Shown piece by piece: positions 32,201 through 59,800 of a stretch of 64,000 nt of DNA; within the stretch, counting starts at the first letter, position 1, and the number at the start of each line of letters is the position of its first letter. Under the pieces are notes generated by a model, which saw only the letters and a program-made list of their open reading frames with translations, made no database searches and was not told the DNA's origin. Source of the stretch: a candidate division WS6 bacterium GW2011_GWF2_39_15 (GTDB taxonomy: Bacteria; Patescibacteriota; Dojkabacteria; SC72); the NCBI GenBank assembly GCA_000993565.1, contig LBWK01000002.1, positions 160,620-224,619 of the forward strand, written 5' to 3'. The position numbers and the translations under genes were made by a program.

Positions 32201-35200
32201 TAGGAAATTCTGAAACGACTGGACCTGATTCCCAAACTACACCTTCACTAGTATGGACAGGAGGAACAATATCGGGAAATAAAATTACTATTACGCCTGA
32301 AATAGGCTCAGAATTAGTTACAAATGGAAATATGGAAATAGGTGACCCTCCTAGCAGTTGGAGTAGTACGTCAACTTTTGATGGTGTGGCAGATGAAAGA
32401 ACAGGTGGTAGTGGTGCTCAATCAGTAGATATTACTGGAGTATCTGGTGGCGTCTTTCAGGACCTTTTATCCACAAATGGAACCTGGGTTTCAATATCAA
32501 ACTGGCAAAAAAATATTACTGGTGGGTTTCCAAAGGTTTTTGTCTATGGAGGTCCTGGTTATACAAACCCGATTTATGACAAATACGGAAGTAGCGATGG
32601 TTCTTGGCACAATTATATAGGCTCAGGGAGGGTTACTTCAACTGCACCAAGAGTTTATTTATATTTAACCACTACTGGGCATGAGTATCGTTATGATGAT
32701 ATCTCAGTCAAACCTTTAACCCTTTCATCCCTTTTCTCCACTGTCTCCACTTCGGATTCTGATGTTATGGCAGATGCTAATGTAACTCTAACTTCCGGTA
32801 CTCAAGCTGGACTAGTTTTAAATCTTGATTCAACGAGTAATCCTCAGAACTTTGTAATTGCATATCACGACGGAACAAATGTAAAACTCGAAAAATCAGT
32901 AGCAGGAGTATATACAACAGTACAGACAACTGCTGTAACATACTCAGCGGGTGCACAGCTCAGAGTTATTAAAGATGGTACTAAGTATCGTGTATATTAC
33001 AACAACACCCTTGTAGGAGCAGAACTTACAATCTCTGATGCGGGTATTATAAGTAATACAAAACACGGCCTTTTCTCAACATACTCTGGTAATACCTTTG
33101 ACAATTTCTCACTCTTTGCAAGGGGAACCGGTGGTGAATACACTGATATTCCTGCAGAAGATGTGACTGCTACATACAGTACTGTTCATAAATATACAGG
33201 TAATGGAAGTGCCTTGCTTTCAACAGGAGGTAATGACTCGAACTTTGTACAGAGTATAAACGTAGGTGATACATCTCAATACTCTCTGGTTGCATATGCA
33301 TATACTGATGGAAGTGCCGTAACGGCAAACGATTTGGAGCTATATTATAATGACTCAGTTCTTTCAACAACCTTTACGGATATGGGAGGTGGCTGGTACA
33401 AACTTAGTGGTGTGTTCACCGGTATTGCATCAAGCAAGGATCTTGGGGTGAGAGTAAAAGCAAGCAAAACAGTTTATGTCGATGATATATCACTATACCA
33501 GCAGTCTGCATACTCAATATTTAATACCGACGGATACTATAACCAGTTGGTCACATCATGGGATTCATTCTCTTCAGATGTAACCACCCCGGGAAGCAGC
33601 AGTATTAAATATCAAGTATGTACTAACGATGGAGACGTCTGTGAAAGCGGAGTGGGAGCAAACTGGAAATATTGGAACGGCAGTGTATGGTCTGCTGCCT
33701 CGAACCTTACAACACATACTAATACCGCAGCTCAACTTACCCAGTCAGTTATGCAGGAGCTGGACACGTTGACTCAGAAGATCTCAGTAAAAGTGATACT
33801 AAACCCTGATGGAATTAACTTCCCGAATATTGCAAATATGATTGTGGGTATGACTACAGATACAACTGACCCAGTCAATGCGACCCTATCCAGGTTTATG
33901 AAAACACCAACACTATCATGTGACTATACTGATAACTGCTGGACTGGGGTATCCACGCCTATTTTTGAGTGGGAAGGCGGAGATGATAATGAAAGCGGAT
34001 TGAAAGGATATTGTTTGTATTTTGGAACCGATGAAGCAGGAGACCCTGCTCATAACAAAGGGAAACTTGGAACATCCCCTGTTCCTGTTTCAGGAACATC
34101 ATGCCAATTCATTATCTCAGGTGAACAGCTGGATCTCTCGACAGCAGGATACCTTGGCACTGCTTTATCTAACGATGATACTTTCATAACATCAGCAAAT
34201 ACGTACTACCTCAATATTAAGAGTGTTGATAATGCAGGGAATGTCGTAAATGTAAGCGAAACAATTAGATTCCGATATGATGAAACTGCTCCTACGAATG
34301 TAAGTTATATATCTACACCTTCGGGTAACTTCTCTAATGTAGTTGATATGAGCTTCTCATGGCCGGTCTCCGGAGCAGGAATTTCACATGATGACGAATC
34401 TGATGTCTTAGGATGGCAGTATCAAATAAACTCTATGAGTGGAGAGTGGCAGGGTACTCAACATTCCGACCTTTATGATATTGATTATATTCCTTTAGGA
34501 GAATCGTCATATACATTAGCTGAAGTGAGGGACGGATCTTTTATAGTTTCAGGCGATAACATTATTTACTTCAGAACTGTAGATAATGTAGGTAATTTCT
34601 CCGGGACTTCGACTATAAGAACCGGAAATATATCCTATGGAGGCGAGGCACCTGATTTTGCTCCTACAGATATTGTCACGGTTACACCTACAACCAGCGA
34701 AACAAACAGCTATGCACTCTCGTGGCCGGCTGCGACGCCTTCCGTGGGTACAGAAGTGGCTCATTACTACTACATGATTAATACCCCGCCTCCTTCTACA
34801 CTTAATACGCTTCAGAGTAATACGGCAGCCTATCTGGATAACGGTACCTCATTAACGGTTTCTGCCAGAGCAATGTCAAATGTGAACAAGGGTTCAAACA
34901 CCGTTTATGTGGTTGCGGTTGATGATGCAGATGTGCCAAACTACTCTCCAAGCAACTACATAACGGGGACGTTTACTTTGGACTCTACAAATCCCGATAA
35001 TGTTGGAAATCTGGTGGTCTCAGACTCTTCAATTAAATCCCAATCCCAATGGAATGTTACCCTTACATGGACTGCTCCAGAGTATCAGGGGGCAGGTAAC
35101 CTATCATATCTTGTATACAGGTCGGAAGATGGAATTAGTTTTATTCAGGTAGGGTCAAGCTCAGGTTTTTCGTATGTAGATAGTGCTCCTGAATCAAGGC

Positions 35201-36528
35201 AGTATTTCTATAAAATTGTTACAAAGGACGGTGCTGATGCACTATCATCAGGTACAAATACCGTTACTATAATTCCGACAGGAAAATGGACTGCACCGGC
35301 AGACCTTGAGTCAGCTCCTTTTGTGAGTAGTATAACAACCAAGAAAGCACAGATAACCTGGAGTACATCTAGAGCCTCGGATTCAAAAATTGCATTTGGG
35401 ACAAAATCCGGACTGTATTTCGAAGAGGAACCGAGCAATTCAGATCAAGTAACGAGTCATTCAATTAATCTCTCAGGTCTCAACCCCAATACCACATACT
35501 TTTATGTTGCTAAGTGGACAGATGAGGATGGTAACACGGGGATCTCTGAAGAGAAATCGTTTAAGACGCAGGCCGCTCCGGTTATAAAAAATGTGTTGGC
35601 AAAAAATATAGGTTTAAGTTCTGCAATCATACAGTTTACCTCCAAGGGATCCAGCAAGGTGAAGATATATTATGGTGAAAGCTCAAACTTCGGAGGAGTC
35701 AAAGAAGTTCCGACGTCACCTATTGAGACTACATATACAGTTGAGTTAACTGGTCTTAAAGATGGCACCAAGTACTTCTATAAATTGAATGCTTTTGATG
35801 TTGAGACCAGTGAGTATGACGGGACTATTTTAGACTTCATCACCCTTCCTAAGCCGAGAATATCCGAGATAGTGCTCCAAGAGGTCTCCGGTACTTCACA
35901 GACAACAATCCTTGTTACATGGCAGACAAATACTGAGGTCTCCTCTATTATCACATACTATCCTGAGGGCAGGATTGATCAGGCAAGAGATGAGGTGATT
36001 GTTACCTTAAAGAAAGGGGAACATAAGATGATTATACGGGGATTACTTCCTCAAACGAGTTATTATCTTGTTGTTAAAGGTAGGGATAGGATCGGAAATG
36101 AAGCTGTCTCTGATTCGTATAAGTTTGCGACATCAACAGACAGTCGTGCACCGCAGATTTCCGGGATGCTGGTCGAAGGATCTACGATTCCCGCTGTATC
36201 GTCAACCGCTGAAGAGACAAAAGCTCAGCTTATCGTCTCATGGAATACGGATGAACCTGCAACATCACAAATTGAATATGGAGAAGGGACTGGTACATCG
36301 TACCCGCAGAAGACACAACTTGATAATAATCTGACTTTAAATCATATCGTAATTATTTCGGGTTTGAGTCCTTCAAAGGTATATCATTTAAGAGTCCTTT
36401 CAAAAGATAAGGCCGGTAATGAGGGTAAATCAATAGATACTGTCACTATTACGCCTAAATCAACAGATAATGCACTTAATTTGGTTATAACTAATTTACA
36501 GGAAATATTTGGTGTTCTTGGAAGGTAA
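29245..36528 (+). CDS. giant cell-surface protein (2427 aa): N-terminal anchor, two ~670-aa tandem repeat modules (lectin/LamG-like, inferred), C-terminal fibronectin-III-like domains
   Basis: Single uninterrupted ORF. N-terminal hydrophobic segment (LFAFVCISIGVVLGLYAGAV). Internal duplication visible at both protein and DNA level. Four FN3-like units near the C-terminus (for example KAQITWSTSRASDSKIAFGT...TTYFYVAKWTDEDGNTG). Confidence 0.8.
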   Translation: MKRSVQINLRSFFTRKITIFKWQFNLFAFVCISIGVVLGLYAGAVNIFKSYAVNDTFQTWTFNIANANNYTYDSEFIAVNNSGAHLGVNKLTNGSLDTDLAGWSDAQSYIIKDEFTDTRAGGSVNGTSATPTGGLRSVTDTNSKLSIGGGSLIFTTGGVAAGDPGLRYSSMSRTPGRIIYGKITLDNVGNSGYTTFGFDDNTVTRIEDGALFYDGRVYHFGAGANVGEDVSKGVEYDTAVIQRSSGSYLFLKGGIYTSWTLISISNTGSFATTYPGFGVYTSTISALAAGLIRVPTTTWIPTPLAYDTFTRSDGSAGSTEAAGPDSQTTERLSWSTGTISSNGMKITPSVGSELVTDGGMENWTSATNLTSWTEYLAGTSTLNQESSITHSGSYSSRSDIDASGSYAQAVQSLSGSIGDWVASSVWGRASASGKTFYSMSTGSRILTEAGSENPGTTWTRYYNSWRVLSSGDLSIWPVYRSSASSSSLYRDDISVKKLSLPSLFSVLSTSDSDVLAEVNVTMEPGNPAGLVLNLDSTSNPQNFVIAYHDGGNVKLEKSVGGVYTSVQSTAVTYVAGAPLKVTKTGTKYKIYYNNALVGSEQTISDAGIISNTNHGVFSTYSENTFDNFALWARGSGGEYNDIPAEDLTATYETTTKYSGAGSAKLITSGNNANFLQSINTGDTNVYSLVTYAYTDGSAVTSSDLVLYHDGSVVPTQFTSVGGGWYRLTGTITGAASSKDVGIRVKAGKTVYVDEFLLYKLGEVTLTNSKFESDVSGWSGTQSYLLQDEFTDTRAAGSVNGTSATPTGGVRTVADTSSQLSIGGGRVQIGDAPASYTNISYPQITRQSGRALIGNLKNNFSYSAPMFGFDDTVGGQIADGVRFASGGGFSIYDGALTAGVGTYVAGTDYTLAVIQRAAGNYYFIKGGAYSNWSLLYMTNNSTGNRYPSLSAQTPITSVSSDYIRVPSLSWLPTPLAYDTFTRADGVIGNSETTGPDSQTTPSLVWTGGTISGNKITITPEIGSELVTNGNMEIGDPPSSWSSTSTFDGVADERTGGSGAQSVDITGVSGGVFQDLLSTNGTWVSISNWQKNITGGFPKVFVYGGPGYTNPIYDKYGSSDGSWHNYIGSGRVTSTAPRVYLYLTTTGHEYRYDDISVKPLTLSSLFSTVSTSDSDVMADANVTLTSGTQAGLVLNLDSTSNPQNFVIAYHDGTNVKLEKSVAGVYTTVQTTAVTYSAGAQLRVIKDGTKYRVYYNNTLVGAELTISDAGIISNTKHGLFSTYSGNTFDNFSLFARGTGGEYTDIPAEDVTATYSTVHKYTGNGSALLSTGGNDSNFVQSINVGDTSQYSLVAYAYTDGSAVTANDLELYYNDSVLSTTFTDMGGGWYKLSGVFTGIASSKDLGVRVKASKTVYVDDISLYQQSAYSIFNTDGYYNQLVTSWDSFSSDVTTPGSSSIKYQVCTNDGDVCESGVGANWKYWNGSVWSAASNLTTHTNTAAQLTQSVMQELDTLTQKISVKVILNPDGINFPNIANMIVGMTTDTTDPVNATLSRFMKTPTLSCDYTDNCWTGVSTPIFEWEGGDDNESGLKGYCLYFGTDEAGDPAHNKGKLGTSPVPVSGTSCQFIISGEQLDLSTAGYLGTALSNDDTFITSANTYYLNIKSVDNAGNVVNVSETIRFRYDETAPTNVSYISTPSGNFSNVVDMSFSWPVSGAGISHDDESDVLGWQYQINSMSGEWQGTQHSDLYDIDYIPLGESSYTLAEVRDGSFIVSGDNIIYFRTVDNVGNFSGTSTIRTGNISYGGEAPDFAPTDIVTVTPTTSETNSYALSWPAATPSVGTEVAHYYYMINTPPPSTLNTLQSNTAAYLDNGTSLTVSARAMSNVNKGSNTVYVVAVDDADVPNYSPSNYITGTFTLDSTNPDNVGNLVVSDSSIKSQSQWNVTLTWTAPEYQGAGNLSYLVYRSEDGISFIQVGSSSGFSYVDSAPESRQYFYKIVTKDGADALSSGTNTVTIIPTGKWTAPADLESAPFVSSITTKKAQITWSTSRASDSKIAFGTKSGLYFEEEPSNSDQVTSHSINLSGLNPNTTYFYVAKWTDEDGNTGISEEKSFKTQAAPVIKNVLAKNIGLSSAIIQFTSKGSSKVKIYYGESSNFGGVKEVPTSPIETTYTVELTGLKDGTKYFYKLNAFDVETSEYDGTILDFITLPKPRISEIVLQEVSGTSQTTILVTWQTNTEVSSIITYYPEGRIDQARDEVIVTLKKGEHKMIIRGLLPQTSYYLVVKGRDRIGNEAVSDSYKFATSTDSRAPQISGMLVEGSTIPAVSSTAEETKAQLIVSWNTDEPATSQIEYGEGTGTSYPQKTQLDNNLTLNHIVIISGLSPSKVYHLRVLSKDKAGNEGKSIDTVTITPKSTDNALNLVITNLQEIFGVLGR
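29515..33510 (+). repeat. tandem duplication of a ~2.0-kb coding module within the giant gene
   Basis: Unit 1 (about 29515-31530) and unit 2 (about 31531-33510) share long conserved blocks, for example DEFTDTRAGGSVNGTSATPTGG and PQNFVIAYHDG.NVKLEKSV.GVYT...TAVTY.AGA...GTKY..YYNN.LVG...ISDAGIISNT.HG.FSTYS.NTFDNF...ARG.GGEY.DIPAED.TATY. Confidence 0.85.
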
Positions 36529-49201: not shown

Positions 49202-50491
49202 TTATTGTTCTATTATATCAAATTTGCCTTGATCTTTAGGAACAGCAGTTATCCAAAGTCGTCCGCGGTTTAACAGCAGCTCTTTACCTGTGCTGTCATA
49301 ATATCTTTCACGTTCCGTCCTTGAGGTTTTCTTCCATTTTCCAATTGTTACTTTCCCATCCTGAAGCACAACAGCTTTCCCTTCTCCTATAGTTGTGATG
49401 ATGATTCTTCCATATGCATCACCCGAACTTTGCATAATTACTTCTTGGATAACGACTACCTTTGCAGAAACCTGCTTGCCAGTCTCGAGATCCAAATCTG
49501 CCTGCCCTCCTATTTTATGTAAATACGAGTTGCTTTTAACATCGTAAGACCATTCGCTATCATACAGGCCGTTATTGGGCAGATCCTGTCTAAATCTAAC
49601 CTTTACTTTTGTTCTGCTTCCTCTCGCGTTAGGTTCTGCATCACGTTTGAATTGGAGCGTATCTATTTCAGGAAATCCACCCCATCCATTTTTAGAAGCA
49701 TAATCCCATGCTGTAACTGTTGAGTTATATTCATTATGCGGGGCAACTCTGTCAGTGACTCTCCAGTATCCATGCGTCCTGAGATCCTTAATTCCGTAAC
49801 TATATATATTTCCACAGGCATTTGTGCGTGGATCACTGGATGATGCACATCCATCATGAATATATAACGGGTCATATGGACTTAGCCATTCCAGGAAGTA
49901 CTGTCGTGCACTTCTTACAGGTCCCACTTTACTTGTGCCTTGACTCCAGAATATTCCCATATATCGGGTTATTCCCGATTCTGCGAGGCTTTCGTAAACA
50001 ATATCGGCACTGTTTAAAGCTGATTGAGGGCGGGCATGATAGTGGTTATTAATCATTATTGCAATTGGTCGATTCTTTTCTAGCTTCTCAATCTCTGTTT
50101 TGGTAAACAAAAGTCCATTCAGCGGGCTCTGTTCTGTTCTTGGTAAATCAGGTGTGGTGAGGGCTGTAGTTATAAACTTTACTTTGTCACTCCAGTTTAT
50201 AATTTGCAGATCTTGTTCCAGGTAGTCTCTATTTATTGTAATTATTTCTGAGGGAGAAATAGGTTTTGTGAAAATATAGAAGTACATTGAGACGGCTAAC
50301 GCACCTAAGAGAATGGTTCCTACGAGAATAGACAGGGTTATTTTTTGCCAGGGCTTTAATTCCCCCTTCTTTTTAAGTGGTTCTATAAGGGTGGTAGGAG
50401 CTTGTTTCACTTCTGACTCGATCTTCGGAGAAACGTTGGTTTCCTGATCTAAAGTGATTACTTTTGTCTTGGCAGTACTCATACATTCCAT
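49202..50491 (-). CDS. DUF3048 (YerB-like) membrane-anchored protein
   Basis: N-terminal TM helix. Core motif ...RPIAIMINNHYHARPQSALNSADIVYE...GITRYMGIFWSQG...PVRSARQYFLEW.. is typical of DUF3048. Confidence 0.65.
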   Translation of the reverse strand: MECMSTAKTKVITLDQETNVSPKIESEVKQAPTTLIEPLKKKGELKPWQKITLSILVGTILLGALAVSMYFYIFTKPISPSEIITINRDYLEQDLQIINWSDKVKFITTALTTPDLPRTEQSPLNGLLFTKTEIEKLEKNRPIAIMINNHYHARPQSALNSADIVYESLAESGITRYMGIFWSQGTSKVGPVRSARQYFLEWLSPYDPLYIHDGCASSSDPRTNACGNIYSYGIKDLRTHGYWRVTDRVAPHNEYNSTVTAWDYASKNGWGGFPEIDTLQFKRDAEPNARGSRTKVKVRFRQDLPNNGLYDSEWSYDVKSNSYLHKIGGQADLDLETGKQVSAKVVVIQEVIMQSSGDAYGRIIITTIGEGKAVVLQDGKVTIGKWKKTSRTERERYYDSTGKELLLNRGRLWITAVPKDQGKFDIIEQ

Positions 50492-50550
50492 ACTATCACA
50501 GAGTTACGATATATGGTAGACTGGAATAATAAGTTGGCTGTTCTATTTAT

Positions 50551-51669
50551 ATGGAACCAAACGTCGCCCCGAAGAAGCGATCTTCATCACTTCTTTATAT
50601 TCTCCTTCTTGTTATACTCGCTTTAATTGGTTACGGTGCTTATGTCCTTGTAAATAAGGAATCTAATACAGATAAACAGAATAACGATACTAATAACGAG
50701 TCCGTAGACGAGAATACTGAAAGTGAAACAGAAACCGATACTGATACTAATACAAACACAGATACAGACTCTGAGACCACTGATAGTGATACAAATGCGG
50801 AACCGGAGCCGGATACTAACACTGATACCACCGTTGTAGATTTTACTAGCTACAAAACGACCAAGCAGACCGTTGGAAGTAGTGATGAGACTGATGGTCA
50901 GTATACTTTGAGTAGTTTAACTGACACGGCAAATACTGGATTCCACAGATTTGAATTTACCTTAACAAGGAAAACGGATAGCGATGTAAACCCTTATGTT
51001 ACAGCTACTTATATCGCATCTTTGGGGGCAATCAGAATTGATTTTGCTGGGGTTACTACAGATAATAGCGGAATCGGGTACCAAAAGAGCAGGATGATAA
51101 ATAAGGAAGGTGTGATTAAGATTTATCATAATGTTAGTGCAGACCAGACTGAAGAGCTTTATGATATTGGAGTGTCTAAGGAGACGCCATTTCTTTTCAG
51201 TATGACAGGTATTGATGCTTCCTCCTGGCTTATAACCCTTGATGTTAAATATCCCGGGGTTGTTGATACTGCTGATGTAGATCTGGGAAGTGAGGAGTTT
51301 TCAAAGGATGCTCAGACTATAACTGGAGCAGGAAAAGCTGACGGAGCGAAGGTATCCTCATATTCTTACAGTGCTTCCGGCGGGATACTCAGGATTGTCT
51401 TTGAGGTGAAAGGGAGTACCGCAAAGCCTATTCCTTCTGCCAGCGCAGGTTATGATGGAGATAATCTTCTAACATTGCGGTTTACCGATATTTCTGAAGA
51501 TGTTATTGCTAAGATGCCGGCCGCATTAGATATGCCGGGCGGTATTACTATGGTATGGGAAATGGAGGGAAGTAGTGCGAGTAAGTATACTTTTGACGGT
51601 GCTGCTAAGGAATTCAAGCTTTCAGCAGGTACCAGTCCAAATCAGGTAATTCTTGAAATAAAACTTTAA
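50551..51669 (+). CDS. exported protein with Thr/Asp/Asn-rich low-complexity acidic linker
   Basis: N-terminal TM/signal (LLYILLLVILALIGYGAYVLV), then ...TESETETDTDTNTNTDTDSETTDSDTNAEPEPDTNTDTT..., then a beta-rich domain. Confidence 0.55.
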   Translation: MEPNVAPKKRSSSLLYILLLVILALIGYGAYVLVNKESNTDKQNNDTNNESVDENTESETETDTDTNTNTDTDSETTDSDTNAEPEPDTNTDTTVVDFTSYKTTKQTVGSSDETDGQYTLSSLTDTANTGFHRFEFTLTRKTDSDVNPYVTATYIASLGAIRIDFAGVTTDNSGIGYQKSRMINKEGVIKIYHNVSADQTEELYDIGVSKETPFLFSMTGIDASSWLITLDVKYPGVVDTADVDLGSEEFSKDAQTITGAGKADGAKVSSYSYSASGGILRIVFEVKGSTAKPIPSASAGYDGDNLLTLRFTDISEDVIAKMPAALDMPGGITMVWEMEGSSASKYTFDGAAKEFKLSAGTSPNQVILEIKL

Positions 51670-51751
51670 TTAGATGATTGTTTGGGGAGATAAATAAAAA
51701 CTGACCCGATAGAAACTGTCTATCTTTTGTAATATAATCCGTTTGATACTA

Positions 51752-51825
51752 CGGGGTGTAGTTCAGATGGCTAGAACGCTTGCATGGGGTGCAAGAGGCC
51801 GCTCGTTCAAGTCGAGTCACCCCGA
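51752..51825 (+). tRNA. tRNA-Pro (anticodon GGG), CCA not encoded
   Basis: Manual fold. Acceptor CGGGGTG/CACCCCG; D-stem GTTC/GAAC; anticodon stem CTTGC/GCAAG with loop ATGGGGT; T-arm GCTCG-TTCAAGT-CGAGT. A TATAAT box lies at 51733-51738 upstream. Confidence 0.75.
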
Positions 51826-51896
51826 TTTTCTTAATCTTCTCTTAATCTATCATTTTGTAATATGTAAACATAATATTAAATTATGTCCTATACAAA

Positions 51897-52775
51897 ATGA
51901 AAACTGGATTCTTAATGTTCATATCTAAAACTATTCTTCCTAATCTTGCCCTTATTGCTTCTGTATTTGCAGTGGGAGGGGTAAGCGGGGTGGCGGCACT
52001 TAAGGTCTCACAGGTAATCCCGGTGCCCGATAAATTGGTAGACCAGGTTAGTGAGCTTAAGGATAAAGTGGATACGGCGATACAAGGTGTTGATGATACA
52101 TCGGCTGTCTCTGCTTCAGGAAGCAAATCTCGAGGAAAGGCTTTAGGATGTATTGTTACAATAGACGGTAATAAATATGACGTCACTAATTTAAAAAAGA
52201 CTCATTCAGGAGGTGATATATTCGTCTGTAATACGGACATGAGTAACTCATACCATAATCAACATGGAACAAACCTTGCAAGAATGGAGCGGTATTTGGT
52301 TAATGAAACCCAGAATGCTGGTACTTCGGGCAGTAGTACCGGCAATATTAAAGCTAGAGCGGCAGTGAACTCTTCGGCGGTTTTCACTGCTGTCTCTTTA
52401 GCTTCGCACAACACAAGTAGCAGTTGTTATATAGCATACTCAGGTAAAGTATATGACGTCTCAAGTCACCCGTCGTGGGGAGGTTGCAGTCACCATGGTG
52501 TATCAGGAGGGCAGGATATAACATCTATCTTTCCCCATCCGATAAGTTATTTGAGTTCTGTTCCAAATGTAGGAACGTTTGGAGGTAGTGCGGCTAATAA
52601 TGGCAACGGTAACACAACTATTGTACGAAAGGATGATGACGATGATGAGAGAGAGGAAGAGGAGATAGAATACGAGTACGAAGATGAGAAAGAGGAGGAA
52701 AAAGAAAAGGAGGATGAGTCGGAACATTCAAGTATGTGGAATCTTATTATTTCTACCTTGCAAAGATACATATAA
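51897..52775 (+). CDS. exported protein with two cytochrome-b5-like heme/steroid-binding-fold domains and an acidic C-terminal tail
   Basis: N-terminal anchor (ILPNLALIASVFAVGGV). Domain 1 ...DGNKYDVTNLKKTHSGGDIF..., domain 2 ...GKVYDVSSHPSWGG... (H-x-GG-like motifs). C-terminus DDDDDEREEEEIEYEYEDEKEEEKEKEDE. Confidence 0.6.
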   Translation: MKTGFLMFISKTILPNLALIASVFAVGGVSGVAALKVSQVIPVPDKLVDQVSELKDKVDTAIQGVDDTSAVSASGSKSRGKALGCIVTIDGNKYDVTNLKKTHSGGDIFVCNTDMSNSYHNQHGTNLARMERYLVNETQNAGTSGSSTGNIKARAAVNSSAVFTAVSLASHNTSSSCYIAYSGKVYDVSSHPSWGGCSHHGVSGGQDITSIFPHPISYLSSVPNVGTFGGSAANNGNGNTTIVRKDDDDDEREEEEIEYEYEDEKEEEKEKEDESEHSSMWNLIISTLQRYI

Positions 52776-53141
52776 ATGAAAAAGAAAATAGTTATACTAC
52801 TGATTCTTGCTCTTGTTGTTTTTGTAGTTATGCTTGGTGGAACCTATGTTACTAGGATGATTCAAGTGGGGAAAACAAGGCAGGTAGCAGGGATTAAGAA
52901 GGAAGGATTAAGTGTGTACAAAAGATCGGATCTGTCCAAATATAATGGGGCAATTAAAGGGCGTCCAATACTCATCGGCTTAAACGGTTATGTTTATGAT
53001 GTGACAGAAGGAAAGAAGTTTTATGAACCCGGTGGTACTTATCACTACCTGGCAGGGAAGGATTCCTCCTCAGAGCTCAACCTGATAGGAGGTGATATTA
53101 TCAGAAGGAAGTATCCAATAGTTGGTGTTATAGTTGACTAA
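52776..53141 (+). CDS. membrane-anchored cytochrome-b5-like domain protein (lacks canonical His ligands)
   Basis: LSKYNGAIKGRPILIGLNGYVYDVTEGKKFYEPGGTYHYLAGKDSSSEL parallels cyt b5 (...KVYDVT.F...HPGG....AGKDAT..F) but reads EPGG in place of HPGG. N-terminal TM helix. Confidence 0.65.
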   Translation: MKKKIVILLILALVVFVVMLGGTYVTRMIQVGKTRQVAGIKKEGLSVYKRSDLSKYNGAIKGRPILIGLNGYVYDVTEGKKFYEPGGTYHYLAGKDSSSELNLIGGDIIRRKYPIVGVIVD

Positions 53142-54441
53142 GATGAAGAGGTTATTCAGTACTTTTTTAATATTTGTTTTTTTGGTGGTTACAGTTATCC
53201 TTTGGGTTTGGGCAAAAAAGTATATAGGAGAACCTACTCCGTTAATTCTTGGAGGGGCACAGATCAGCGCCCTTCTTGCAGTTACTTTGCTTTCGTTGGA
53301 GTATATCATTGCGACTAGACTGAGGATTGTTGAGGTAATCTTTGATGGCTTAGATAATGCATATATCGCTCATCATATTATTGGCGGGTTTGCCTTTGTC
53401 CTTATTCTTACTCACCCTTTGCTTTTAATTATCAACTCAATTCCCTCAATACAAGGTTTTTATACCTACCTTCTACCATCTTCCAATCTGGCCTATACAT
53501 TCGGTATTCTAGCCTTGTATTGCTATACGATAATCCTACTTGTCACTTTTTATGCAAAAATCCCTTACAGTATCTGGGCTACAATCCACAAGTTTATAGG
53601 CATACCTATGCTGTTAGTCATGATACATGTTTTGCTTATTTCGAGTGACATTTCTGTGTACCCGCCTTTGGCCATATGGATATTTTCACTTGTTGGGATA
53701 GCTTTGATTTCCGCAGTATACAAGAGATTCTTGTACAGGCTTTTGAGCGTCAAATATAGGTATAGAGTTTCGCATACACGGATTTTGGGTGAGGTTATAG
53801 AGATATATATGCTTCCTGTGAAAGAGAAAGTCTCCTTTTTACCCGGCCAGTTTATCTACGTCAGGTTTTTTAGAAGAGAAATAGGTAGCGAGCAGCATCC
53901 CTTCTCTATCTCTTCGGGGATTAATACTGATGAGTTAAGAATATCGGTTAAAATGGATGGAGATTCTACCTGGAAGTATATGCGTCTAGAGTCTGGGGAT
54001 GAAGTAGAGTTGCAGGGACCTCACGGCAAGTTTGGAGAAAGTCTTCTATCTGATCAGAAAGATGCAATATGGGTAGCAGGGGGAATCGGTATTACCCCTT
54101 TTTTATCATTGTTGGATTACGAAAGTGTCTCTACAAGTCATCGGAAAGTATCTCTATACTACACCGTTAAGAATCATAACGAAGCTGTATATATTACAGA
54201 GCTGGCTCAAAAAGCGTTAAGAAAAAATACCTTAAGAGTATACCCAAACTTTTCTGAAAGTTCAGGGAGGTTGGAGCCTTTGAAAGTAGTTCAGAACGAG
54301 GGACTGGATAGAAGAAGTCTTGGAAAAATGAAAGTCTTTCTCTGCGGTCCAAGTTCTATGATGGAGAGCATGACAATAGGGTTTATTAACCTTGGTATAA
54401 AGCCCTGGAATATAATTAAAGAGGACTTCTATATTAAATGA
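53134..54441 (+). CDS. ferric-reductase-domain / NADPH-oxidase-family flavocytochrome (TM bis-heme domain + FAD- and NAD(P)H-binding domains)
   Basis: Paired His in TM helices (HHIIGGFAFVLILTHPLLL and HKFIGIPMLLVMIHVLL). FAD-binding motif HPFSISS. NAD(P)H-binding motifs IWVAGGIGITPFLSLL and FLCGPSSMM. Confidence 0.85.
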   Translation: MTKMKRLFSTFLIFVFLVVTVILWVWAKKYIGEPTPLILGGAQISALLAVTLLSLEYIIATRLRIVEVIFDGLDNAYIAHHIIGGFAFVLILTHPLLLIINSIPSIQGFYTYLLPSSNLAYTFGILALYCYTIILLVTFYAKIPYSIWATIHKFIGIPMLLVMIHVLLISSDISVYPPLAIWIFSLVGIALISAVYKRFLYRLLSVKYRYRVSHTRILGEVIEIYMLPVKEKVSFLPGQFIYVRFFRREIGSEQHPFSISSGINTDELRISVKMDGDSTWKYMRLESGDEVELQGPHGKFGESLLSDQKDAIWVAGGIGITPFLSLLDYESVSTSHRKVSLYYTVKNHNEAVYITELAQKALRKNTLRVYPNFSESSGRLEPLKVVQNEGLDRRSLGKMKVFLCGPSSMMESMTIGFINLGIKPWNIIKEDFYIK

Positions 54442-54546
54442 GAAAAGTTATTAAACAGATTGTAACAATTGTCCTGATTAATTATCTCTTGATACTTATT
54501 GGTATTTTTATAGTAGAATATGTCCTAAATAGGTAACCAATATATT

Positions 54547-55224
54547 TTGATGAGAATACTGATAGTTGAAGATGATTTAACGATTTCAAAAAACTTAAGA
54601 ACTTTTCTGGAGCGGTCCTCTTATGTTGTTGATGTGGCAAGACATGGAAATGAAGGGTTAGAAAGGGCTTTGAATGAGGAGTATGATCTGGTAATTTTGG
54701 ACTGGATGCTTCCGGGTAAAAACGGAATTGAAATTTGTCATGAGATAAGAAAAAGTGGAAAAACCGTCCCTGTAATTATGCTGACAGCAAAGTCACAGGT
54801 CGAGGATAAAGTGGAAGGTTTGGATGTCGGAGCAGATGACTACCTAACAAAACCGTTTGAAATGTCTGAACTGCTAGCAAGAGTTAGGGCACTACTCAGA
54901 AGAAAGTATACACAGCACAGGTCAGGAGTTATTGAAGCGGCTAATCTGATTATTGATACTAATAGTCATATTGTAAAAAGAGGTGACAAGATACTAGAAT
55001 TATCCGTGAGAGAATATGCGCTCCTTGAGTACCTTGCGAGTAATATGGGAATTGCTATGTCACGGGAGGATATTCTGACTCACGTTTGGGATGAAAACAT
55101 TGATCTATTTACCAACACGGTTGATGTACATATTAGATATTTACGAAAGAAGATTGATGTCGGTTCTAAAAAGAAATTAATTAAAACAGTTAAAGGGGTG
55201 GGTTATATGCTATGCAAAGATTAA
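54547..55224 (+). CDS. OmpR-family two-component response regulator
   Basis: Receiver domain (ILIVEDD...DLVILDWMLPGKNG...) plus C-terminal winged-helix trans_reg_C domain (...TVKGVGYML). Confidence 0.9.
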   Translation: MMRILIVEDDLTISKNLRTFLERSSYVVDVARHGNEGLERALNEEYDLVILDWMLPGKNGIEICHEIRKSGKTVPVIMLTAKSQVEDKVEGLDVGADDYLTKPFEMSELLARVRALLRRKYTQHRSGVIEAANLIIDTNSHIVKRGDKILELSVREYALLEYLASNMGIAMSREDILTHVWDENIDLFTNTVDVHIRYLRKKIDVGSKKKLIKTVKGVGYMLCKD

Positions 55225-56621
55225 CGACTAGAGCAAAAATGACTTTCCAGTTTAGTCTGGTTACAATTTTAACCTTGCTTATTACCGGGGTCATCTTCTC
55301 AATTGGCTATTACATCAGTTCCCGAATAGAGATTAGAAAGAATCTCCTTCATGAGATTAATGAGGTTATAAGTCAACATCTTTATGTCGAAAAAGGTCGT
55401 TTAATACTCAAGAGGGGAGAAGAAAATGAACTCCTATCTGAGCATCTGAGAAATGATGGAACCTCAGCAGTCATTTATAACTCGGAATTTGAACCATTAG
55501 CGACTTATGGAATGTTCAAAAAGTATGATAGTGAGGATTACAATAAAAAGAATAAGATAGCACTTGAGAATGTTTTTAAGACAGGCGAGTATTTTATATA
55601 CACAGACGGTAAGAGTTATGGAAACCGTCCTTACGAACTGGTTATTTACCCGGTATCTTCAAATGGAGGGGTTGTCGGACTTGTACAGTTGGCGATTGAG
55701 GTGCAGTTGGCTAACGACATAGTTAAATTGAGTGTCATGATACTTCTTGGAGCTCTCCTTATAGGTGCCACCATTAGCTTTATAGCCTCATACTTCATTT
55801 CAAAACAAGCTTTGAGCCCTTTGACAGTTCTATCACAGCAGATGAATGATATCTCTACTAGCAATTTGGATCTCAAGATAGATACTTCTGGGAACGAGAA
55901 AGATGAGATGGTTGTCCTCTCAAGAACATTCAACAGAATGCTGGAAAGGATAAATGAAGGGGTATTAAAACAGAAAGAGTTTATTTCTACGGCTTCGCAC
56001 GAGTTGAGAACCCCGCTTACAAGAGCGGTAAGTAATCTAGAAGTTATTCTGTTGGATTTGAAAGAGCAATCGGCTCGGAAATCTATTCGCCGGACAAAAG
56101 AGGAGTTGTTAAATCTGAATAGTATCCTTGAGAGTTTGCTGGCTCTTTCAAATATTAAGGAACTGAAGAAAGTAAGTGAGGAGGTTCAGGTCAGGGAGGA
56201 AATAGATATTATGCTAAAAAACTTTGCCCTTGATATTAAAAGAAAGAGACTTAGAATTGAAAATAAAGTTAAGGACACTACTATTAATATACCTAAAAAC
56301 TACTTCTATGTAATATTTAACAATCTGCTTTCAAACGCAATTAAATATAGTAGAAAGGAAGGGATTATTAATATCTCATGTGAAGTTAAAAAGGATAGAT
56401 GCGGTATCAAAATCTCTGATAGCGGTGTTGGCATTAGGTCCAGGGATTTAGGCCAGATATTTGAAAGATTTTATAGGGGCAGGAACGCAAAAGGTAATGG
56501 GTATGGCGTTGGTTTGGCTCTTGTTAAGGAGGTGTGCAACAAGTTAGGACTAGATATCAGTGTCATATCTGGAGAGGGTAAAGGATCGGAGTTTATTGTA
56601 AGTGGTTTGGAAACCGTTTAG
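55212..56621 (+). CDS. sensor histidine kinase
   Basis: Two TM helices flanking an extracytoplasmic loop of about 130 aa. HAMP-like segment, H-box STASHELRTPLT, and HATPase_c region (...SDSGVGI...GNGYGVGLALVKEV). Overlaps the regulator by 13 nt. Confidence 0.88.
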   Translation: MQRLTTRAKMTFQFSLVTILTLLITGVIFSIGYYISSRIEIRKNLLHEINEVISQHLYVEKGRLILKRGEENELLSEHLRNDGTSAVIYNSEFEPLATYGMFKKYDSEDYNKKNKIALENVFKTGEYFIYTDGKSYGNRPYELVIYPVSSNGGVVGLVQLAIEVQLANDIVKLSVMILLGALLIGATISFIASYFISKQALSPLTVLSQQMNDISTSNLDLKIDTSGNEKDEMVVLSRTFNRMLERINEGVLKQKEFISTASHELRTPLTRAVSNLEVILLDLKEQSARKSIRRTKEELLNLNSILESLLALSNIKELKKVSEEVQVREEIDIMLKNFALDIKRKRLRIENKVKDTTINIPKNYFYVIFNNLLSNAIKYSRKEGIINISCEVKKDRCGIKISDSGVGIRSRDLGQIFERFYRGRNAKGNGYGVGLALVKEVCNKLGLDISVISGEGKGSEFIVSGLETV

Positions 56622-57604
56622 TTTCTATTCAGATACTTCTCAATCTCGAGTTCTGCAGCTATTCCCATTCCTATTGCAGTGCCTGCCTGTCTGTATTCAT
56701 AATCCGTGCAGTCACCTGCAGCAAATAGGCCTTTTATGTTTGTTGCGTATCTGAACCCAAAATCAAACTGGTCAGAGATATCAGTATGCTTCTCAAGGGC
56801 GACTCTGTCCGAATTGTATATATATCCTTTCTCATCAAGAAGCACTCCGGTATCCTTCAGGAAGGAAGTGGTCGGGATATGTCCTATTGCCAGGAATAAA
56901 CCCTGAACATTTAGGACCTTTTCATCTTTCATTCCATCTCCGCTGACAACCTCAAGTCTTAATCCCTCTACACTGTTTTCCCCTAAAACTTCTACTACCT
57001 GAGCATTTACTATGAACTCAATCTTCGGATTGTTTTTTGCTTTCTCAATCATGAACTTTGAGGCTCTAAACTCATTTCTTCTGTGTATAATTGTGACCTT
57101 TGATGCAAATCTAGTTAGAAATGTTGCTTCCTCCATGGCAGAGTCTCCTCCTCCTACAACCGCTATTTCCTTATCCTTGAAGAAAAAACCGTCACATGTG
57201 GCACAGGCACTAACACCCTTTCCCCTTAATCTCTGTTCGGATTCCAATCCAAGCCATTTGGCATCAGCACCAGTAGCAACAAGTACCGCTCGGGATTGAA
57301 GAGTCTGTCCGTTTGATATTGTGACTGTAAAAAGTTCATCCTTTTTAACGGATACAACATTTTCCGTAATGTATCTGGTCCCGAATTTTTGAGCTTGGTC
57401 TCTGAATCTTTTTATGAGGTCAGGTCCTAATACCCCCTCGGGAAAACCTGGATAGTTTTCGACTTCTGAAGTTAGTGTCAACTGTCCACCTGCGGGTAAT
57501 CCTTCGATTACTAAAGGGTTCAGCATTGCTCTGGAAGCATAAAGAGCTGCTGCTAGTCCGGCAGGTCCTCCTCCGATTATGATAAGCTTTTCTGTCTGAT
57601 TCAT
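56618..57604 (-). CDS. trxB: thioredoxin-disulfide reductase
   Basis: FAD motif IIGGGPAGLAAA, redox-active CATCDG, and NAD(P)H motif AVVGGGDSAMEEA. Confidence 0.9.
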   Translation of the reverse strand: MNQTEKLIIIGGGPAGLAAALYASRAMLNPLVIEGLPAGGQLTLTSEVENYPGFPEGVLGPDLIKRFRDQAQKFGTRYITENVVSVKKDELFTVTISNGQTLQSRAVLVATGADAKWLGLESEQRLRGKGVSACATCDGFFFKDKEIAVVGGGDSAMEEATFLTRFASKVTIIHRRNEFRASKFMIEKAKNNPKIEFIVNAQVVEVLGENSVEGLRLEVVSGDGMKDEKVLNVQGLFLAIGHIPTTSFLKDTGVLLDEKGYIYNSDRVALEKHTDISDQFDFGFRYATNIKGLFAAGDCTDYEYRQAGTAIGMGIAAELEIEKYLNRN

Positions 57605-57634
57605 ATATTTATAATATCATATGAGTCAATAGCT

Positions 57635-59800
57635 TTATAACCCCCATGAGAGGGCTTTCTTGAATGACGCCATATCGCCAAAGGCATGTATTCTGGCAAG
57701 TGAGAGCCTTCTGTAAAAGGTATGGTCAATTGAATTGCCGCATGATACACCTATTTTATATCCACTTCCTGCGACCACACCAAAAGATTCTGTATCAGCA
57801 ACACAACCCGGGTATGCTATACCATTAACAAGCCGGCCTGTTAAACTTTGCAGTCCGTACTTGCTTGAAGTTATTTCAAAAGCCAGCTTTACAGGATCAT
57901 CAGTGGTTTTAAGGTTTGCATGCGTTGCTGAATGTGAATCAATGGACATGCCGTTATTTGCCATTTCTTTGAGCTCATTTCCTTTTATTGAGGATCTATG
58001 TGAGACAACGAAAAACACTCCGGTTAAACCATATTTCTTAAGTAGCGGGTAGGCGGTAGTATAGTGATTACGTACGCCATCATCAAATGTTATCATTATA
58101 GATTTCTGCTTAGGATTTTCTCCGGTTGCCAGTATATCGTGAAGTTCCTGAGGAGTGAGGGCTTTGTAATTGTGTGCTACAAGATAAGCCAACTGAGTTT
58201 CGAATTCCTTTGGAGAAACATATAACCCTTTGACAAATTGAGAACCTGATGTCGGGACTGCCGCGATTTGGTGATACATAAGTATAGGAACCCTGACAGT
58301 TCCTTTCGCTTGCGGTTTGATTTTAAAATCATACTTCTCATTAAAGTTGTTATTTGGCGGAGTTATATCATATTGGCTTAGGACGCTCCATGTATTGCTT
58401 TCGGCATCTCTTTTTTCAATGATAGAGACGGGAGATGTTGCGAGAATGACCTTGCCCTGTTGGTCTTTGACTGCGGTCAGTCTCAGTTTTATTACTACCC
58501 GTGTGTTCTCTTCTGGAGCACCTAAGTTGTTTGACATACTTAGTATTCTCGCCACATGTTCTGGGTTCGGATTTATAGTACTGGAATCCGCAAGATATGA
58601 AAATGTTTCGCTCAACTCATCTAGGGATTCATTAGTTGTTTGATCCAGCATCCCCGAACTCTCGAGCTCATTCTTAACTACTGAACAGACCTTTGTGTAA
58701 AGCGTGTATAGCTCTGGAGCTACTTCCAAGTATGCTTCATTAGAGGTTGCCGGGACAGATTTCTCAGAAGGTTCATTATCAAATGTAAATCGTGACTGGT
58801 TTATTATTTCAAGAGACTGTTGTTCAAGAACTTTTTCTACACTATTTGAAAGGCTGTAAACCGGATAGATATCACTTTGCATAAGTTGCCAAGAGTGTAT
58901 AGTGTTTTGTGGTTCATTGTCAGCACTTATTTTGAAATTTTTCAGAGTCTTTTCAATCACTTCCCCTTCTAAATCCTTTGTATATTTAAATTCCTTGTCA
59001 AAGTTAAGAGCTTGGGGGCTTATATCAAAGATATTATTTATCCTGTTAAGACGTGCGATATCTTCTATGTGATCGGTTGAGGCAAGTGCATAGAAGATAT
59101 ATAACTTGGTTTTAGTGTTAATATCAAAGAAATCATTCAACTGTATGAGTGCATCTTCATATTTTTTGTTTGATAGAAGTGCAGATGTATTATCCATCTG
59201 CATTTTCATTATTATTGACTGTTGCTGTATATAGCGGGATTGAGAAGTTGTAGAAGCTTTCCTGAAGTACCTACTAAGATCTTTAGCGGTCTCGTGAAGT
59301 AGCGGGTTTAAAGAAGACTCAATAATTCTCTGCTTTATTTCGGTCATCGAATAATTAAATAGATTTGCGAGAGATTCTCTAGTCATTAGAATAGGAAGAT
59401 CTTTTTGCATTAGGTCCGAGTAATATGAAGAGTAGCTCTCTTGTAGTGCCACACCTGGATTAGAAGTTGTAATTGTCACACCATTTGCAAGTAGGTTTAC
59501 CTTTTGTGTGTATGTTAATGAGATGTTTAACTTTTTTAAAGTGTCGTCATAGTTTGAGGGGAAACCTGTTAGAGGGTATGATGTGGTACTGAGGCTCTCC
59601 TTGTTACTTGGAGTATCAATTTGGCCTGCGAAATCAATTAATTCTGCCTGATGTTGTGAATATTCTGTAATTTGAGGAATTTGTTCATATCTAGCTTCCT
59701 GCACTTTCTGAAATAGCAAGGCTCCAAGGTAGGTTAGTGATACAACAATGATTGTAAACAGAAGTATGATAAGAACTTTTGCGGTAATCTTTTTTATCAC
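57635..59800 (-). CDS. membrane-anchored protein with C-terminal polysaccharide deacetylase (NodB/CE4) domain
   Basis: N-terminal TM helix. C-terminal region has IMITFDDGVRNHYTTAYPLLKKYGLTGVFFVV (TFDDG motif) and later His motifs (SHSATH). Confidence 0.7.
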   Translation of the reverse strand: MIKKITAKVLIILLFTIIVVSLTYLGALLFQKVQEARYEQIPQITEYSQHQAELIDFAGQIDTPSNKESLSTTSYPLTGFPSNYDDTLKKLNISLTYTQKVNLLANGVTITTSNPGVALQESYSSYYSDLMQKDLPILMTRESLANLFNYSMTEIKQRIIESSLNPLLHETAKDLSRYFRKASTTSQSRYIQQQSIIMKMQMDNTSALLSNKKYEDALIQLNDFFDINTKTKLYIFYALASTDHIEDIARLNRINNIFDISPQALNFDKEFKYTKDLEGEVIEKTLKNFKISADNEPQNTIHSWQLMQSDIYPVYSLSNSVEKVLEQQSLEIINQSRFTFDNEPSEKSVPATSNEAYLEVAPELYTLYTKVCSVVKNELESSGMLDQTTNESLDELSETFSYLADSSTINPNPEHVARILSMSNNLGAPEENTRVVIKLRLTAVKDQQGKVILATSPVSIIEKRDAESNTWSVLSQYDITPPNNNFNEKYDFKIKPQAKGTVRVPILMYHQIAAVPTSGSQFVKGLYVSPKEFETQLAYLVAHNYKALTPQELHDILATGENPKQKSIMITFDDGVRNHYTTAYPLLKKYGLTGVFFVVSHRSSIKGNELKEMANNGMSIDSHSATHANLKTTDDPVKLAFEITSSKYGLQSLTGRLVNGIAYPGCVADTESFGVVAGSGYKIGVSCGNSIDHTFYRRLSLARIHAFGDMASFKKALSWGL

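Follow-up and report, generated by a model that had tools for sequence, protein, structure and literature searches.

What does a bacterium of the Candidate Phyla Radiation (CPR) do with a compact gene module that places cytochrome b5-like proteins beside a flavocytochrome and a two-component system? We address this question for a module of candidate division WS6 bacterium GW2011_GWF2_39_15 (Dojkabacteria), which lies in a stretch of 64,000 nucleotides of contig LBWK01000002.1 (positions 160,620 to 224,619 of the forward strand; hereafter the window). Directly after a tRNA-Pro gene come five co-directional genes, here called g1 to g5: two for membrane-anchored b5-like proteins (g1, with b5-like domains A and B, and g2), one for the flavocytochrome (g3), and one each for a response regulator (g4) and a sensor histidine kinase (g5), with the thioredoxin reductase gene trxB converging on the last of them (Table 1). 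Every feature of this layout that an initial annotation had described is present, as are all the motifs that it quoted. That annotation also proposed that the flavocytochrome hands electrons to exported b5-like partners under two-component control, counted trxB with the module, and took g2 for a heme-less copy; the conserved unit stands and export is plausible, but neither the membership of trxB nor the haem-less g2 survives our analysis. Our own conclusion, for and against which we find the scales about level, is that the module is an inducible, NAD(P)H-driven electron-export unit with tethered b5 proteins as acceptors.

The module had been regarded as an unusual and unrecognized system, but it is already published, this very locus included (Tamarit et al. 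2021, bioRxiv 10.1101/2021.11.17.468889). That work describes cytb5MY, a CPR-only, MAPR-like b5 protein that has the PGRMC1 contact residues and no MIHIR insert, in 36 CPR genomes, colocalized with the reductase gene pFre (PF01794) in 29 of them, with CBLA/CBLB cytb5 genes in 28 and with a two-component system in 22, and interprets the cluster as a putative ancestral operon whose function it describes as "unknown CPR-specific". Its supplement labels the g2 product, KKR05718.1, as b5MY of WS6 bacterium GW2011_GWF2_39_15, and the g1 product, KKR05717.1, as "CPR-b5M?", a tree neighbor of the leaf "CPR1_BLA_Ga0076328_12230". The locus studied here is this published CPR operon of cytb5MY, pFre, cytb5-like genes and a two-component system, in one of the paper's own source genomes, and from the paper's description and tree labels we infer that domain B corresponds to CBLA (clade-1-like) and domain A to CBLB (clade-2-like). 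What our analysis adds is the NADPH oxidase (NOX) identity of pFre, a conserved operator, a universal domain-A partner together with its relic in this genome, and the exclusion of trxB; SpNOX, TspO, cupin, promoters and direct repeats all go unmentioned in the full text of Tamarit et al. (2021).

The conservation of the unit was followed in one genome per GTDB species, which gave 52 loci with a g2 relative, whose open reading frames (ORFs) were searched with the window proteins. These loci span Dojkabacteria, Saccharibacteria, Yonath-, Jorgensen-, Kaiser-, Nomura-, Shapiro-, Collier-, Davies-, Gottesman- and Wirthbacteria, among others, and a common gene order runs through the Dojkabacteria, Saccharibacteria, Microgenomates and Parcubacteria lineages: a protein with domain A and/or domain B, cytb5MY, the reductase, a small anchored domain-A protein, the response regulator and the histidine kinase. 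Where at least 1.5 kb of downstream sequence is available, the reductase gene lies directly 3' of the g2 relative in 32 of 44 loci and somewhere in the locus in 38 of the 44. Where the reductase is adjacent and at least 4.5 kb follows, a domain-A gene is found downstream in every case (26 of 26), and the regulator and kinase genes come right after it in 18. All-against-all clustering of 53 neighborhoods found the five module families alone to be conserved. Several loci with the typical operon (L013, L015, L024, L027, L028, L038, L039, L042, L047, L048, L050-L052 and L055) bear titles such as "uncultured Pseudomonadales", "Gammaproteobacteria" or "Bdellovibrionales", and are either mislabeled CPR bins or exceptions to the CPR-only claim.

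The assignment of g3 to the ferric-reductase/NADPH-oxidase families holds up, as both its transmembrane His pairs and its FAD and NAD(P)H motifs align with the NOX family. Pfam recognizes Ferric_reduct (PF01794, 34.4 bits against a cutoff of 28), FAD_binding_8 and NAD_binding_1/6, and the protein has six hydrophobic segments, the His pairs H80-x13-H94 and H152-x12-H165 (all four residues at least 99% conserved in 154 homologues), HPFSI at residue 255, GIGITP at residue 317, and a CGP motif. Its closest relative is SpNOX (PDB 8qq7; E 1.1e-37 over aa 48-413), and both have a conserved Phe at three residues from the C-terminal end (F432 in g3, F397 in SpNOX). The g3 protein satisfies every sequence filter defined for the bacterial NOX family by Hajjar et al. 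2017 (PMC5676040), including two His-x12/14-His motifs that lie at least 20 residues apart, one in helix 3 and one in helix 5 of a six-helix transmembrane domain. Judged by its sequence, g3 is an SpNOX-type flavocytochrome. SpNOX itself reduces O2 in vitro, yet its outer haem is highly exposed and it reduces cytochrome c directly and faster than O2, with negligible ferric reductase activity; its authors doubt that O2 is the physiological acceptor and write that there is a possible acceptor protein (PMC11564096). Of the two candidate starts of g3, the ATG is likelier and is the NCBI start, and the distance from the g2 stop to the g3 start is within 8 nt. In some of the related loci, the reductase that directly follows cytb5MY is missing and a second, more distantly related reductase subfamily lies a few kilobases downstream; its members measure about 450 aa, match g3 at E about 1e-25 to 1e-30, and have in front of them a DUF4352 gene and genes for b5 proteins about 330 aa long (L014:8355-12269, L016:1115-4910, L025:5858-9904, L026:8323-15477, L031:8285-12546); because this subfamily has b5 proteins of its own, the b5-reductase pairing recurs with a different reductase lineage.

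Domain A is strictly coupled to the reductase. A domain-A gene begins within 60 nt of the reductase stop in 31 loci, mostly by an ATGA overlap, and its products share a conserved N-terminal anchor, "MK.IKTI..I.L.NF...", and long Pro/Thr/Ala-rich linkers. In the window, the gap between g3 and g4 is 105 nt and holds a 32-aa ORF, MRKVIKQIVTIVLINYLLILIGIFIVEYVLNR, whose ATG overlaps the g3 stop in the same ATGA fashion. A hidden Markov model (HMM) of 27 post-reductase N-termini matches MRKVIKQIVTIVLINYLLILIGIFIVEYVLNR at E 4e-5, which is the sole significant match among the window's 1720 reading-frame segments, the next being at 0.2. On the strength of this profile match, the ORF is a relic of the post-reductase b5 gene from which the linker and b5 domain have been deleted, and domain A survives in this genome only as the N-terminal part of g1.

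The b5-like assignment of all three domains is upheld by profile, structure and alignment evidence. Pfam places Cyt-b5 in both g1 and g2, although in g1 only at aa 167-215 (1.2e-12); domain A alone scores 17.7 bits (E 0.0036), below the PF00173 gathering threshold of 23.7. Within the domain-A family, however, 47 of 48 members have a Cyt-b5 match at E <= 1 (best 4e-19), HSGG and a pair of Cys residues never vary, and at least 90% of the members keep the second His. The two conserved His residues align with the axial-ligand His positions of a rat cytochrome b5 sequence, in its HPGG and GHS motifs (hhalign 84%), and when the PDB was searched with an AF2 model of domain A (pLDDT 84), every match was a classical cytochrome b5 (TMq about 0.70). 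Profile, alignment and predicted fold together make domain A a b5 domain despite its sub-threshold Pfam score. Domain B resembles archaeal cytb5M structures, by sequence (PDB 6nzx, 1e-7; also 6vz6) and in its AF2 model (pLDDT 93-96; Foldseek TM 0.75-0.79 to both), with an invariant C...C pair, W, C-x-H-H-G and FPH. Each of the two domains thus has an invariant Cys pair and keeps the axial-His positions. In g1 these appear with the motifs THSGGD and SHPSWGG and are followed by an acidic tail (aa 246-277) in which 23 of 32 residues are Asp or Glu; the N-terminal anchor is common to g1 homologues, and poly-D/E tails recur in them. All of the b5 proteins begin with a short basic N-terminus and one hydrophobic helix.

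Exhaustive HMMER scanning found 1117 proteins with domain A, domain B or both, single, paired or arrayed, whereas a word-indexed homologue search with g1 gave only four matches. Some relatives form long tandem arrays: of two prokaryotic proteins, P0182 (655 aa, on a 2.45-Mb contig) and P0212 (634 aa), one has six b5 domains and the other has DUF2231 and five b5 domains. P0247, a 1777-aa protein from the cercozoan eukaryote Mataza sp. D1, joins nine Cyt-b5 domains to a Ferric_reduct/FAD/NAD NOX core; we give this fusion little weight as Rosetta-stone evidence, because it comes from a eukaryote and a six-helix topology would put its b5 array in the cytosol. In some Microgenomates loci, both axial His residues are gone from a domain-A protein whose gene lies between those of cytb5MY and the reductase, for example with KTGGSTD and YG in place of THSGGD and HG (L020:8295-8846, L033:8280-8912, L035:8394-9026, L043:8403-9068), and these copies, unlike g2, look from their sequences like haem-less b5 proteins.

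The initial annotation had read the EPGG of g2 as a His-to-Glu change in the HPGG motif that marked a heme-less copy. Pfam does find Cyt-b5 in this protein (3.9e-7), but its top PDB relatives are Arabidopsis MSBP (1t0g, 7.7e-12) and human PGRMC1 (4x8y, 8.8e-8). The g2 segment "KKFYEPGGTY" pairs with PGRMC1 "RKFYGPEGPY", and the C-terminal "RKYPIVG" with MSBP "AKYPVVG". The first position of EPGG varies across the family (E, K, Q, V or A), while Y83, Y89, K112 and Y113, which correspond to the haem-contacting residues Y107, Y113, K163 and Y164 of PGRMC1, are invariant in 39 homologues. A degenerate, haem-less HPGG is thereby ruled out, and the clade would ligate haem through Tyr if it binds haem at all. 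Because g2 lacks the MIHIR insert that eukaryotic MAPR (PGRMC/NENF) proteins have between their helices 3 and 4 (its residues 103-108 span 1t0g residues 67-96, about 6 vs about 30 residues), the g2 sequence makes it a MAPR-like cytb5MY and not a MAPR protein in the strict sense.

The two-component genes also have the domains first proposed for them. The g4 protein consists of Response_reg and Trans_reg_C, and its nearest NCBIfam models are of the CusR/CopR, PhoB and HprR types, all below cutoff (234 bits for CusR/CopR, 228 for the PhoB equivalog against a cutoff of 296, and 199 for HprR). In g5, Pfam domains and hydrophobic segments give the order of a first transmembrane segment, an extracytoplasmic loop of about 130 aa, a second transmembrane segment, HAMP, HisKA and HATPase_c; its nearest model is CusS (159 bits, likewise below cutoff). 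Neither Pfam nor the PDB holds a relative of the sensor loop, and no His, Cys or Met is conserved in it.

A conserved direct repeat that resembles a PhoB box lies at 51830-51848, as a candidate response-regulator site. The sequence CTTAATCT-tct-CTTAATCT, of which this is the sole exact copy in the window, begins five nucleotides after the tRNA-Pro gene, has a 7-4-7 layout with an 11-bp period, and occupies the place of a -35 element, with the candidate -10 hexamer TAATAT starting 9-10 nt 3' of it. We searched both strands of 53 loci for TTAATCT-N4-TTAATCT, allowing up to two mismatches, and scored as the operator zone the coding strand from -1000 to +400 of the cytb5MY start, which makes up 5.3% of the search space. 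Of 40 matches, 19 fell in this zone vs 2.1 expected (binomial p 2.5e-14, for a motif derived from four of the scored loci), and a TAnnAT-like hexamer follows most of the 19 sites at 8-11 nt, as judged by eye and unscored. PhoB-activated promoters are built in much the same way, with two 7-bp direct repeats (the pho box) 4 bp apart and about 10 bp 5' of the -10 element. The candidate operator shares with them the 7-bp repeats, the 11-bp period, the missing -35 element and the nearby -10 element, but its repeat is CTTAATC, not CTGTCAT, and its predicted regulator scores below the PhoB cutoff. The claim that the two-component system regulates the redox module fits this conserved operator in front of it, with the pairing of g4 and operator a prediction from sequence; positive autoregulation of the operon is likely, because in most loci no gap separates the operon from the regulator and kinase genes that come after it.

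Other regulatory candidates fared less well. A promoter and terminator scan of 51500-57800 gave 19 promoter-like sites against 17.6 expected and three terminators against 4.2. The 9-mer TATGTCCTA occurs three times on the forward strand of the window, 5' of g1, 5' of g4 and antisense in trxB, all in the module region, but at least three copies appear in 15 of 100 shuffles and we reject it as a regulatory motif. A degenerate second repeat 5' of g4 (about 54476-54497) was likewise dismissed as an operator, being coding sequence of the relic's anchor helix.

Taken together, these features suggest how the module may work. The flavocytochrome g3 would take a hydride from cytoplasmic NAD(P)H onto FAD and send electrons one at a time to the outer membrane surface by way of two stacked b haems, one held by H80/H152 and the other by H94/H165. 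Out there, membrane-tethered b5-type haem domains, rather than primarily O2, would accept them. The first acceptor would most likely be the classical bis-His domain A, because it is strictly coupled to the reductase (translationally, in 31 related loci); domain B and g2 could be further relay, haem-handling or docking subunits, and O2, a component of the host surface, or a metal such as Fe(III) might be the terminal acceptor. Kinase g5 would sense an extracytoplasmic signal, and phosphorylated g4 would bind the CTTAATCT-N3-CTTAATCT repeat and turn on the whole operon, its own genes included. This scheme presumes that the b5 domains hold haem, that they face outward, that electrons flow to them, and that g4 is the regulator that recognizes the operator. 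We favor electron export to the b5 proteins, the most economical reading, because it matches what is described for SpNOX: an exposed haem, direct reduction of cytochrome c, and a proposed protein acceptor (PMC11564096).

A bolder form of this proposal, which we advance only tentatively and would sooner expect to fail than to hold, is that tethered b5 haem proteins are the physiological protein acceptors of SpNOX-type NADPH oxidases and form with them an inducible, all-b-haem extracellular conduit, one that would give fermentative, respiration-less CPR episymbionts an external NAD(P)H sink under a dedicated two-component switch with a defined operator. According to published work, CPR bacteria have no respiratory complexes apart from ATP synthase, and some have haem-biosynthesis genes (PMC12577380). 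If the electron-export reading is right, these bacteria would possess a controlled outlet for reducing equivalents to the exterior, and the bacterial NOX family would gain a natural protein acceptor; the structural study of SpNOX explicitly raises the question of the physiological acceptor (PMC11564096). The locus also provides handles on the question, namely a defined operator, a predicted first acceptor in domain A, and a natural truncation variant in this genome.

Several points weigh against b5 proteins as electron acceptors. Haem that is ligated by Tyr usually relays electrons poorly and would better suit a role in haem binding or transfer, and the charge distribution flanking the g1 and g2 anchors leaves their orientation unsettled. 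The otherwise universal post-reductase partner has lost its b5 domain here, so the module may be partly decayed, and the reductase of the syntenic Dojkabacteria locus L001 has no b5 neighbors. The operator motif was derived from four of the loci on which it was then scored; once these are set aside, 15 of 36 matches lie in the operator zone. In the literature, we found no report that demonstrates haem binding by the cytb5MY clade; crystallization of cytb5MY proteins is reported to have failed, and the reductase is found much more commonly with no b5 gene nearby, a Cyt-b5 gene lying within 10 kb in 185 of 1427 CPR genomes with PF01794 (Tamarit et al. 2021).

These points have to be set against what the alternatives can explain. 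That the genes are neighbors by chance, or belong to a thiol-redox cluster centered on trxB, is a reading to which we give practically no credence: trxB (TIGR01292, 362 bits vs a cutoff of 343) does overlap the kinase stop, and L001 too has its reductase close to trxB, but the b5-b5-reductase-regulator-kinase order recurs in dozens of species of different CPR lineages and comes with a shared operator, and trxB is present in none of the 52 loci, so this reading is refuted. Inclusion of trxB in the module falls with it. Its adjacency is confined to L001, where the flanking synteny is kept (DUF3048 ... reductase ... trxB, DUF5667, PDDEXK) without the b5 genes or the two-component system, and its place beside g5 is local Dojkabacteria synteny. 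A better case, if still a rather unlikely one, can be made for haem acquisition or handling, in which exported b5 proteins, the Tyr-type cytb5MY foremost, would capture ferric haem of host or environmental origin, reduction by the flavocytochrome would loosen the Tyr-Fe bond so that the haem can be passed on, and the two-component system would respond to haem. The PGRMC1-type Tyr and Lys contacts of g2 point in this direction, because Tyr ligation is characteristic of haem carriers, NEAT domains and HasA for example, and haem chaperoning is a role of MAPR proteins. So do the TspO genes in six loci, immediately upstream and co-directional in L033, L035 and L043, whose family binds tetrapyrroles, and the MacB/FtsX-type ABC exporters divergently upstream in L013, L029, L030 and L039, an arrangement that resembles that of Hss/Hrt haem efflux. 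Domains A and B nevertheless keep the bis-His ligation that is typical of electron carriers, neither a haem importer nor a haem oxygenase is among the five families to which conservation in the neighborhoods is confined, the TspO and ABC genes occur in a minority of related lineages, and a full NAD(P)H-FAD-dihaem reductase would be a heavy tool for releasing haem.

The remaining two alternatives concern where the electrons end up. If g3 were a true NADPH oxidase, it would reduce O2 to external superoxide for attack, signaling or O2 scavenging at the host interface, and the b5 proteins would be accessory or regulatory. We consider this distinctly improbable, even though g3 passes all NOX filters and is closest to SpNOX, an enzyme that can use O2 in vitro, and many CPR bacteria grow under oxic conditions (PMC12577380); the doubts of the SpNOX authors about O2 and the faster reduction of cytochrome c (PMC11564096) argue against it, and it leaves up to three conserved co-transcribed haem-domain genes, as well as the coupling of domain A to the reductase, without explanation. 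We think it more doubtful still that the module is a metal-responsive assimilatory metalloreductase, a narrower form of electron export in which the acceptor is specified and in which acidic, His-containing tails gather Fe(III) or Cu(II), the b5 proteins reduce it for uptake, and a CusRS/CopRS-like system does the sensing. The nearest models of g4 and g5, the poly-D/E tails of g1 homologues, and the reading of clusters with FRD, NAD-binding and VIT1 genes as iron reductases in other bacteria (PMC8238504) are consistent with such a role. Against it stand the sub-cutoff NCBIfam scores of both proteins, the kinase loop without conserved metal-ligand candidates (His, Cys or Met), the neighborhood clustering, which shows no conserved metal transporter beside the operon, and the very weak ferric reductase activity of SpNOX (PMC11564096). 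Electron export to tethered b5 proteins is the reading that we retain.

Table 1. Features of the module and its surroundings, in window positions.
Feature	Position	Strand	Length	Description
2427-aa ORF	29245-36528	+	2427 aa	followed by 250- and 666-aa ORFs
372-aa ORF	50551-51669	+	372 aa	directly 5' of tRNA-Pro
tRNA-Pro(GGG)	51752-51825	+		upstream edge of module; ARAGORN
Direct repeat	51830-51848	+		candidate response-regulator operator
TAATAT	51858-51863	+		candidate -10 hexamer, read from sequence
TATGTCCTA, copy 1	51882-51890	+		5' of g1
g1 (KKR05717.1)	51897-52775	+	292 aa	anchor, domain A, domain B, acidic tail
g1 domain A	52149-52310 (about aa 85-138)	+		short b5-like domain, classical bis-His type
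g1 domain B	52374-52592 (about aa 160-232)	+		b5-like domain, archaeal-cytb5M type
g2 (KKR05718.1)	52776-53141	+	121 aa	membrane-anchored cytb5MY
g3	53134 (TTG) or 53143 (ATG) to 54441	+	435/432 aa	SpNOX-type flavocytochrome
ORF MRKVIKQIVTIVLINYLLILIGIFIVEYVLNR	54438-54536	+	32 aa	relic of post-reductase domain-A gene, anchor helix only
TATGTCCTA, copy 2	54519-54527	+		5' of g4
g4	54547-55224	+		OmpR/PhoB-family response regulator; probable start ATG 54550
g5	55212-56621	+		sensor histidine kinase
trxB	56618-57604	-		thioredoxin reductase, convergent; 4-nt overlap with g5 stop
TATGTCCTA, copy 3	56878-56886	+		antisense in trxB

Some of the surroundings deserve mention in their own right. The 372-aa ORF upstream of the tRNA-Pro gene encodes one N-terminal hydrophobic segment and a long acidic repeat region rich in Thr, Asp, Asn and Glu; a protein of similar size occupies the equivalent position in L001, and a Pfam search with the 372-aa protein gave no significant match. 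The much larger 2427-aa ORF and the two that follow it lie about 15 kb 5' of the module. An Rfam scan of 50000-58000 at the gathering threshold returned no match, although ARAGORN calls the tRNA-Pro gene there. In related loci, the flanking genes vary. TspO, found in 6 of the 52, is joined by a cupin gene, both co-directional and just 5' of cytb5MY, in Microgenomates/Shapirobacteria (L033:6843-7866, L035:5908-7980, L043:7123-8013); L035 also has DUF2177 and a DUF1295/steroid-reductase-like gene, and in L043 an operator-like repeat precedes TspO. Several loci, possibly from related lineages, have an operon of HlyD, an ABC ATPase and a MacB/FtsX exporter divergently 5' of the module (L013:4315-7300, L029:3183-6100, L030:42-1600, L039:3072-6000, L027:8902-13891), the L027 copy adjoining a distant regulator and kinase pair.

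Comparison with known systems helps to place the module. In Escherichia coli, MsrPQ and HprSR (YedVW) combine a membrane haem protein from the FRD (ferric reductase domain) superfamily, which feeds an extracytoplasmic partner, with an adjacent CusRS-like two-component system; MsrQ has no dehydrogenase domain and uses quinol, and MsrP is a molybdoenzyme. The module contains no MsrP-type molybdoenzyme gene, and its operator appears unrelated to that of HprSR. Eukaryotic MAPR proteins (PGRMC1, 4X8Y; MSBP, 1T0G) share with g2 the fold family and the Tyr/Tyr/Lys-Tyr contacts, but they have the MIHIR insert and are cytosolic, whereas g2 is probably exported and sits in a redox operon.

Closer parallels come from bacterial electron-transfer systems. 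Meheust et al. 2021 (PMC8238504) described 1437 clusters in which PF01794 and PF00175 occur with ApbE and an extracytosolic FMN-binding protein, with CPR under-represented. These MsrQ-like flavinylation clusters resemble the module in setting an NAD(P)H-fed dihaem membrane protein beside an extracytosolic, cofactor-bearing acceptor; their acceptor, however, carries covalent FMN installed by ApbE, where that of the module would carry b-type haem in b5 folds. Neither ApbE nor FMN_bind is present in the window flanks at 44-62 kb or among the recurrent locus families, the models not having been run explicitly on the loci. SpNOX (PDB 8QQ7, 8QT6; PMC5676040, PMC11564096, PMC11031084) has the same six-helix dihaem domain and FAD/NAD(P)H dehydrogenase domain as g3, and the same H-x13-H, H-x12-H, HPFS and GIGITP motifs and Phe three residues from the C-terminus. 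Unlike SpNOX, for which we have seen no partner protein reported, g3 has up to three co-transcribed b5-type proteins and a two-component system. The nearest counterpart of all is the operon of Tamarit et al. (2021), every element of which is found here: cytb5MY, an adjacent PF01794 gene, CBLA/CBLB-like domains, a two-component system and a CPR host. The present locus departs from it in that g1 joins a CBLB-like and a CBLA-like domain in one protein and that all that is left of the post-reductase b5 gene is a 32-aa relic, and where Tamarit et al. (2021) treat pFre as a generic flavin/ferric reductase, its counterpart here, g3, is of the SpNOX type.

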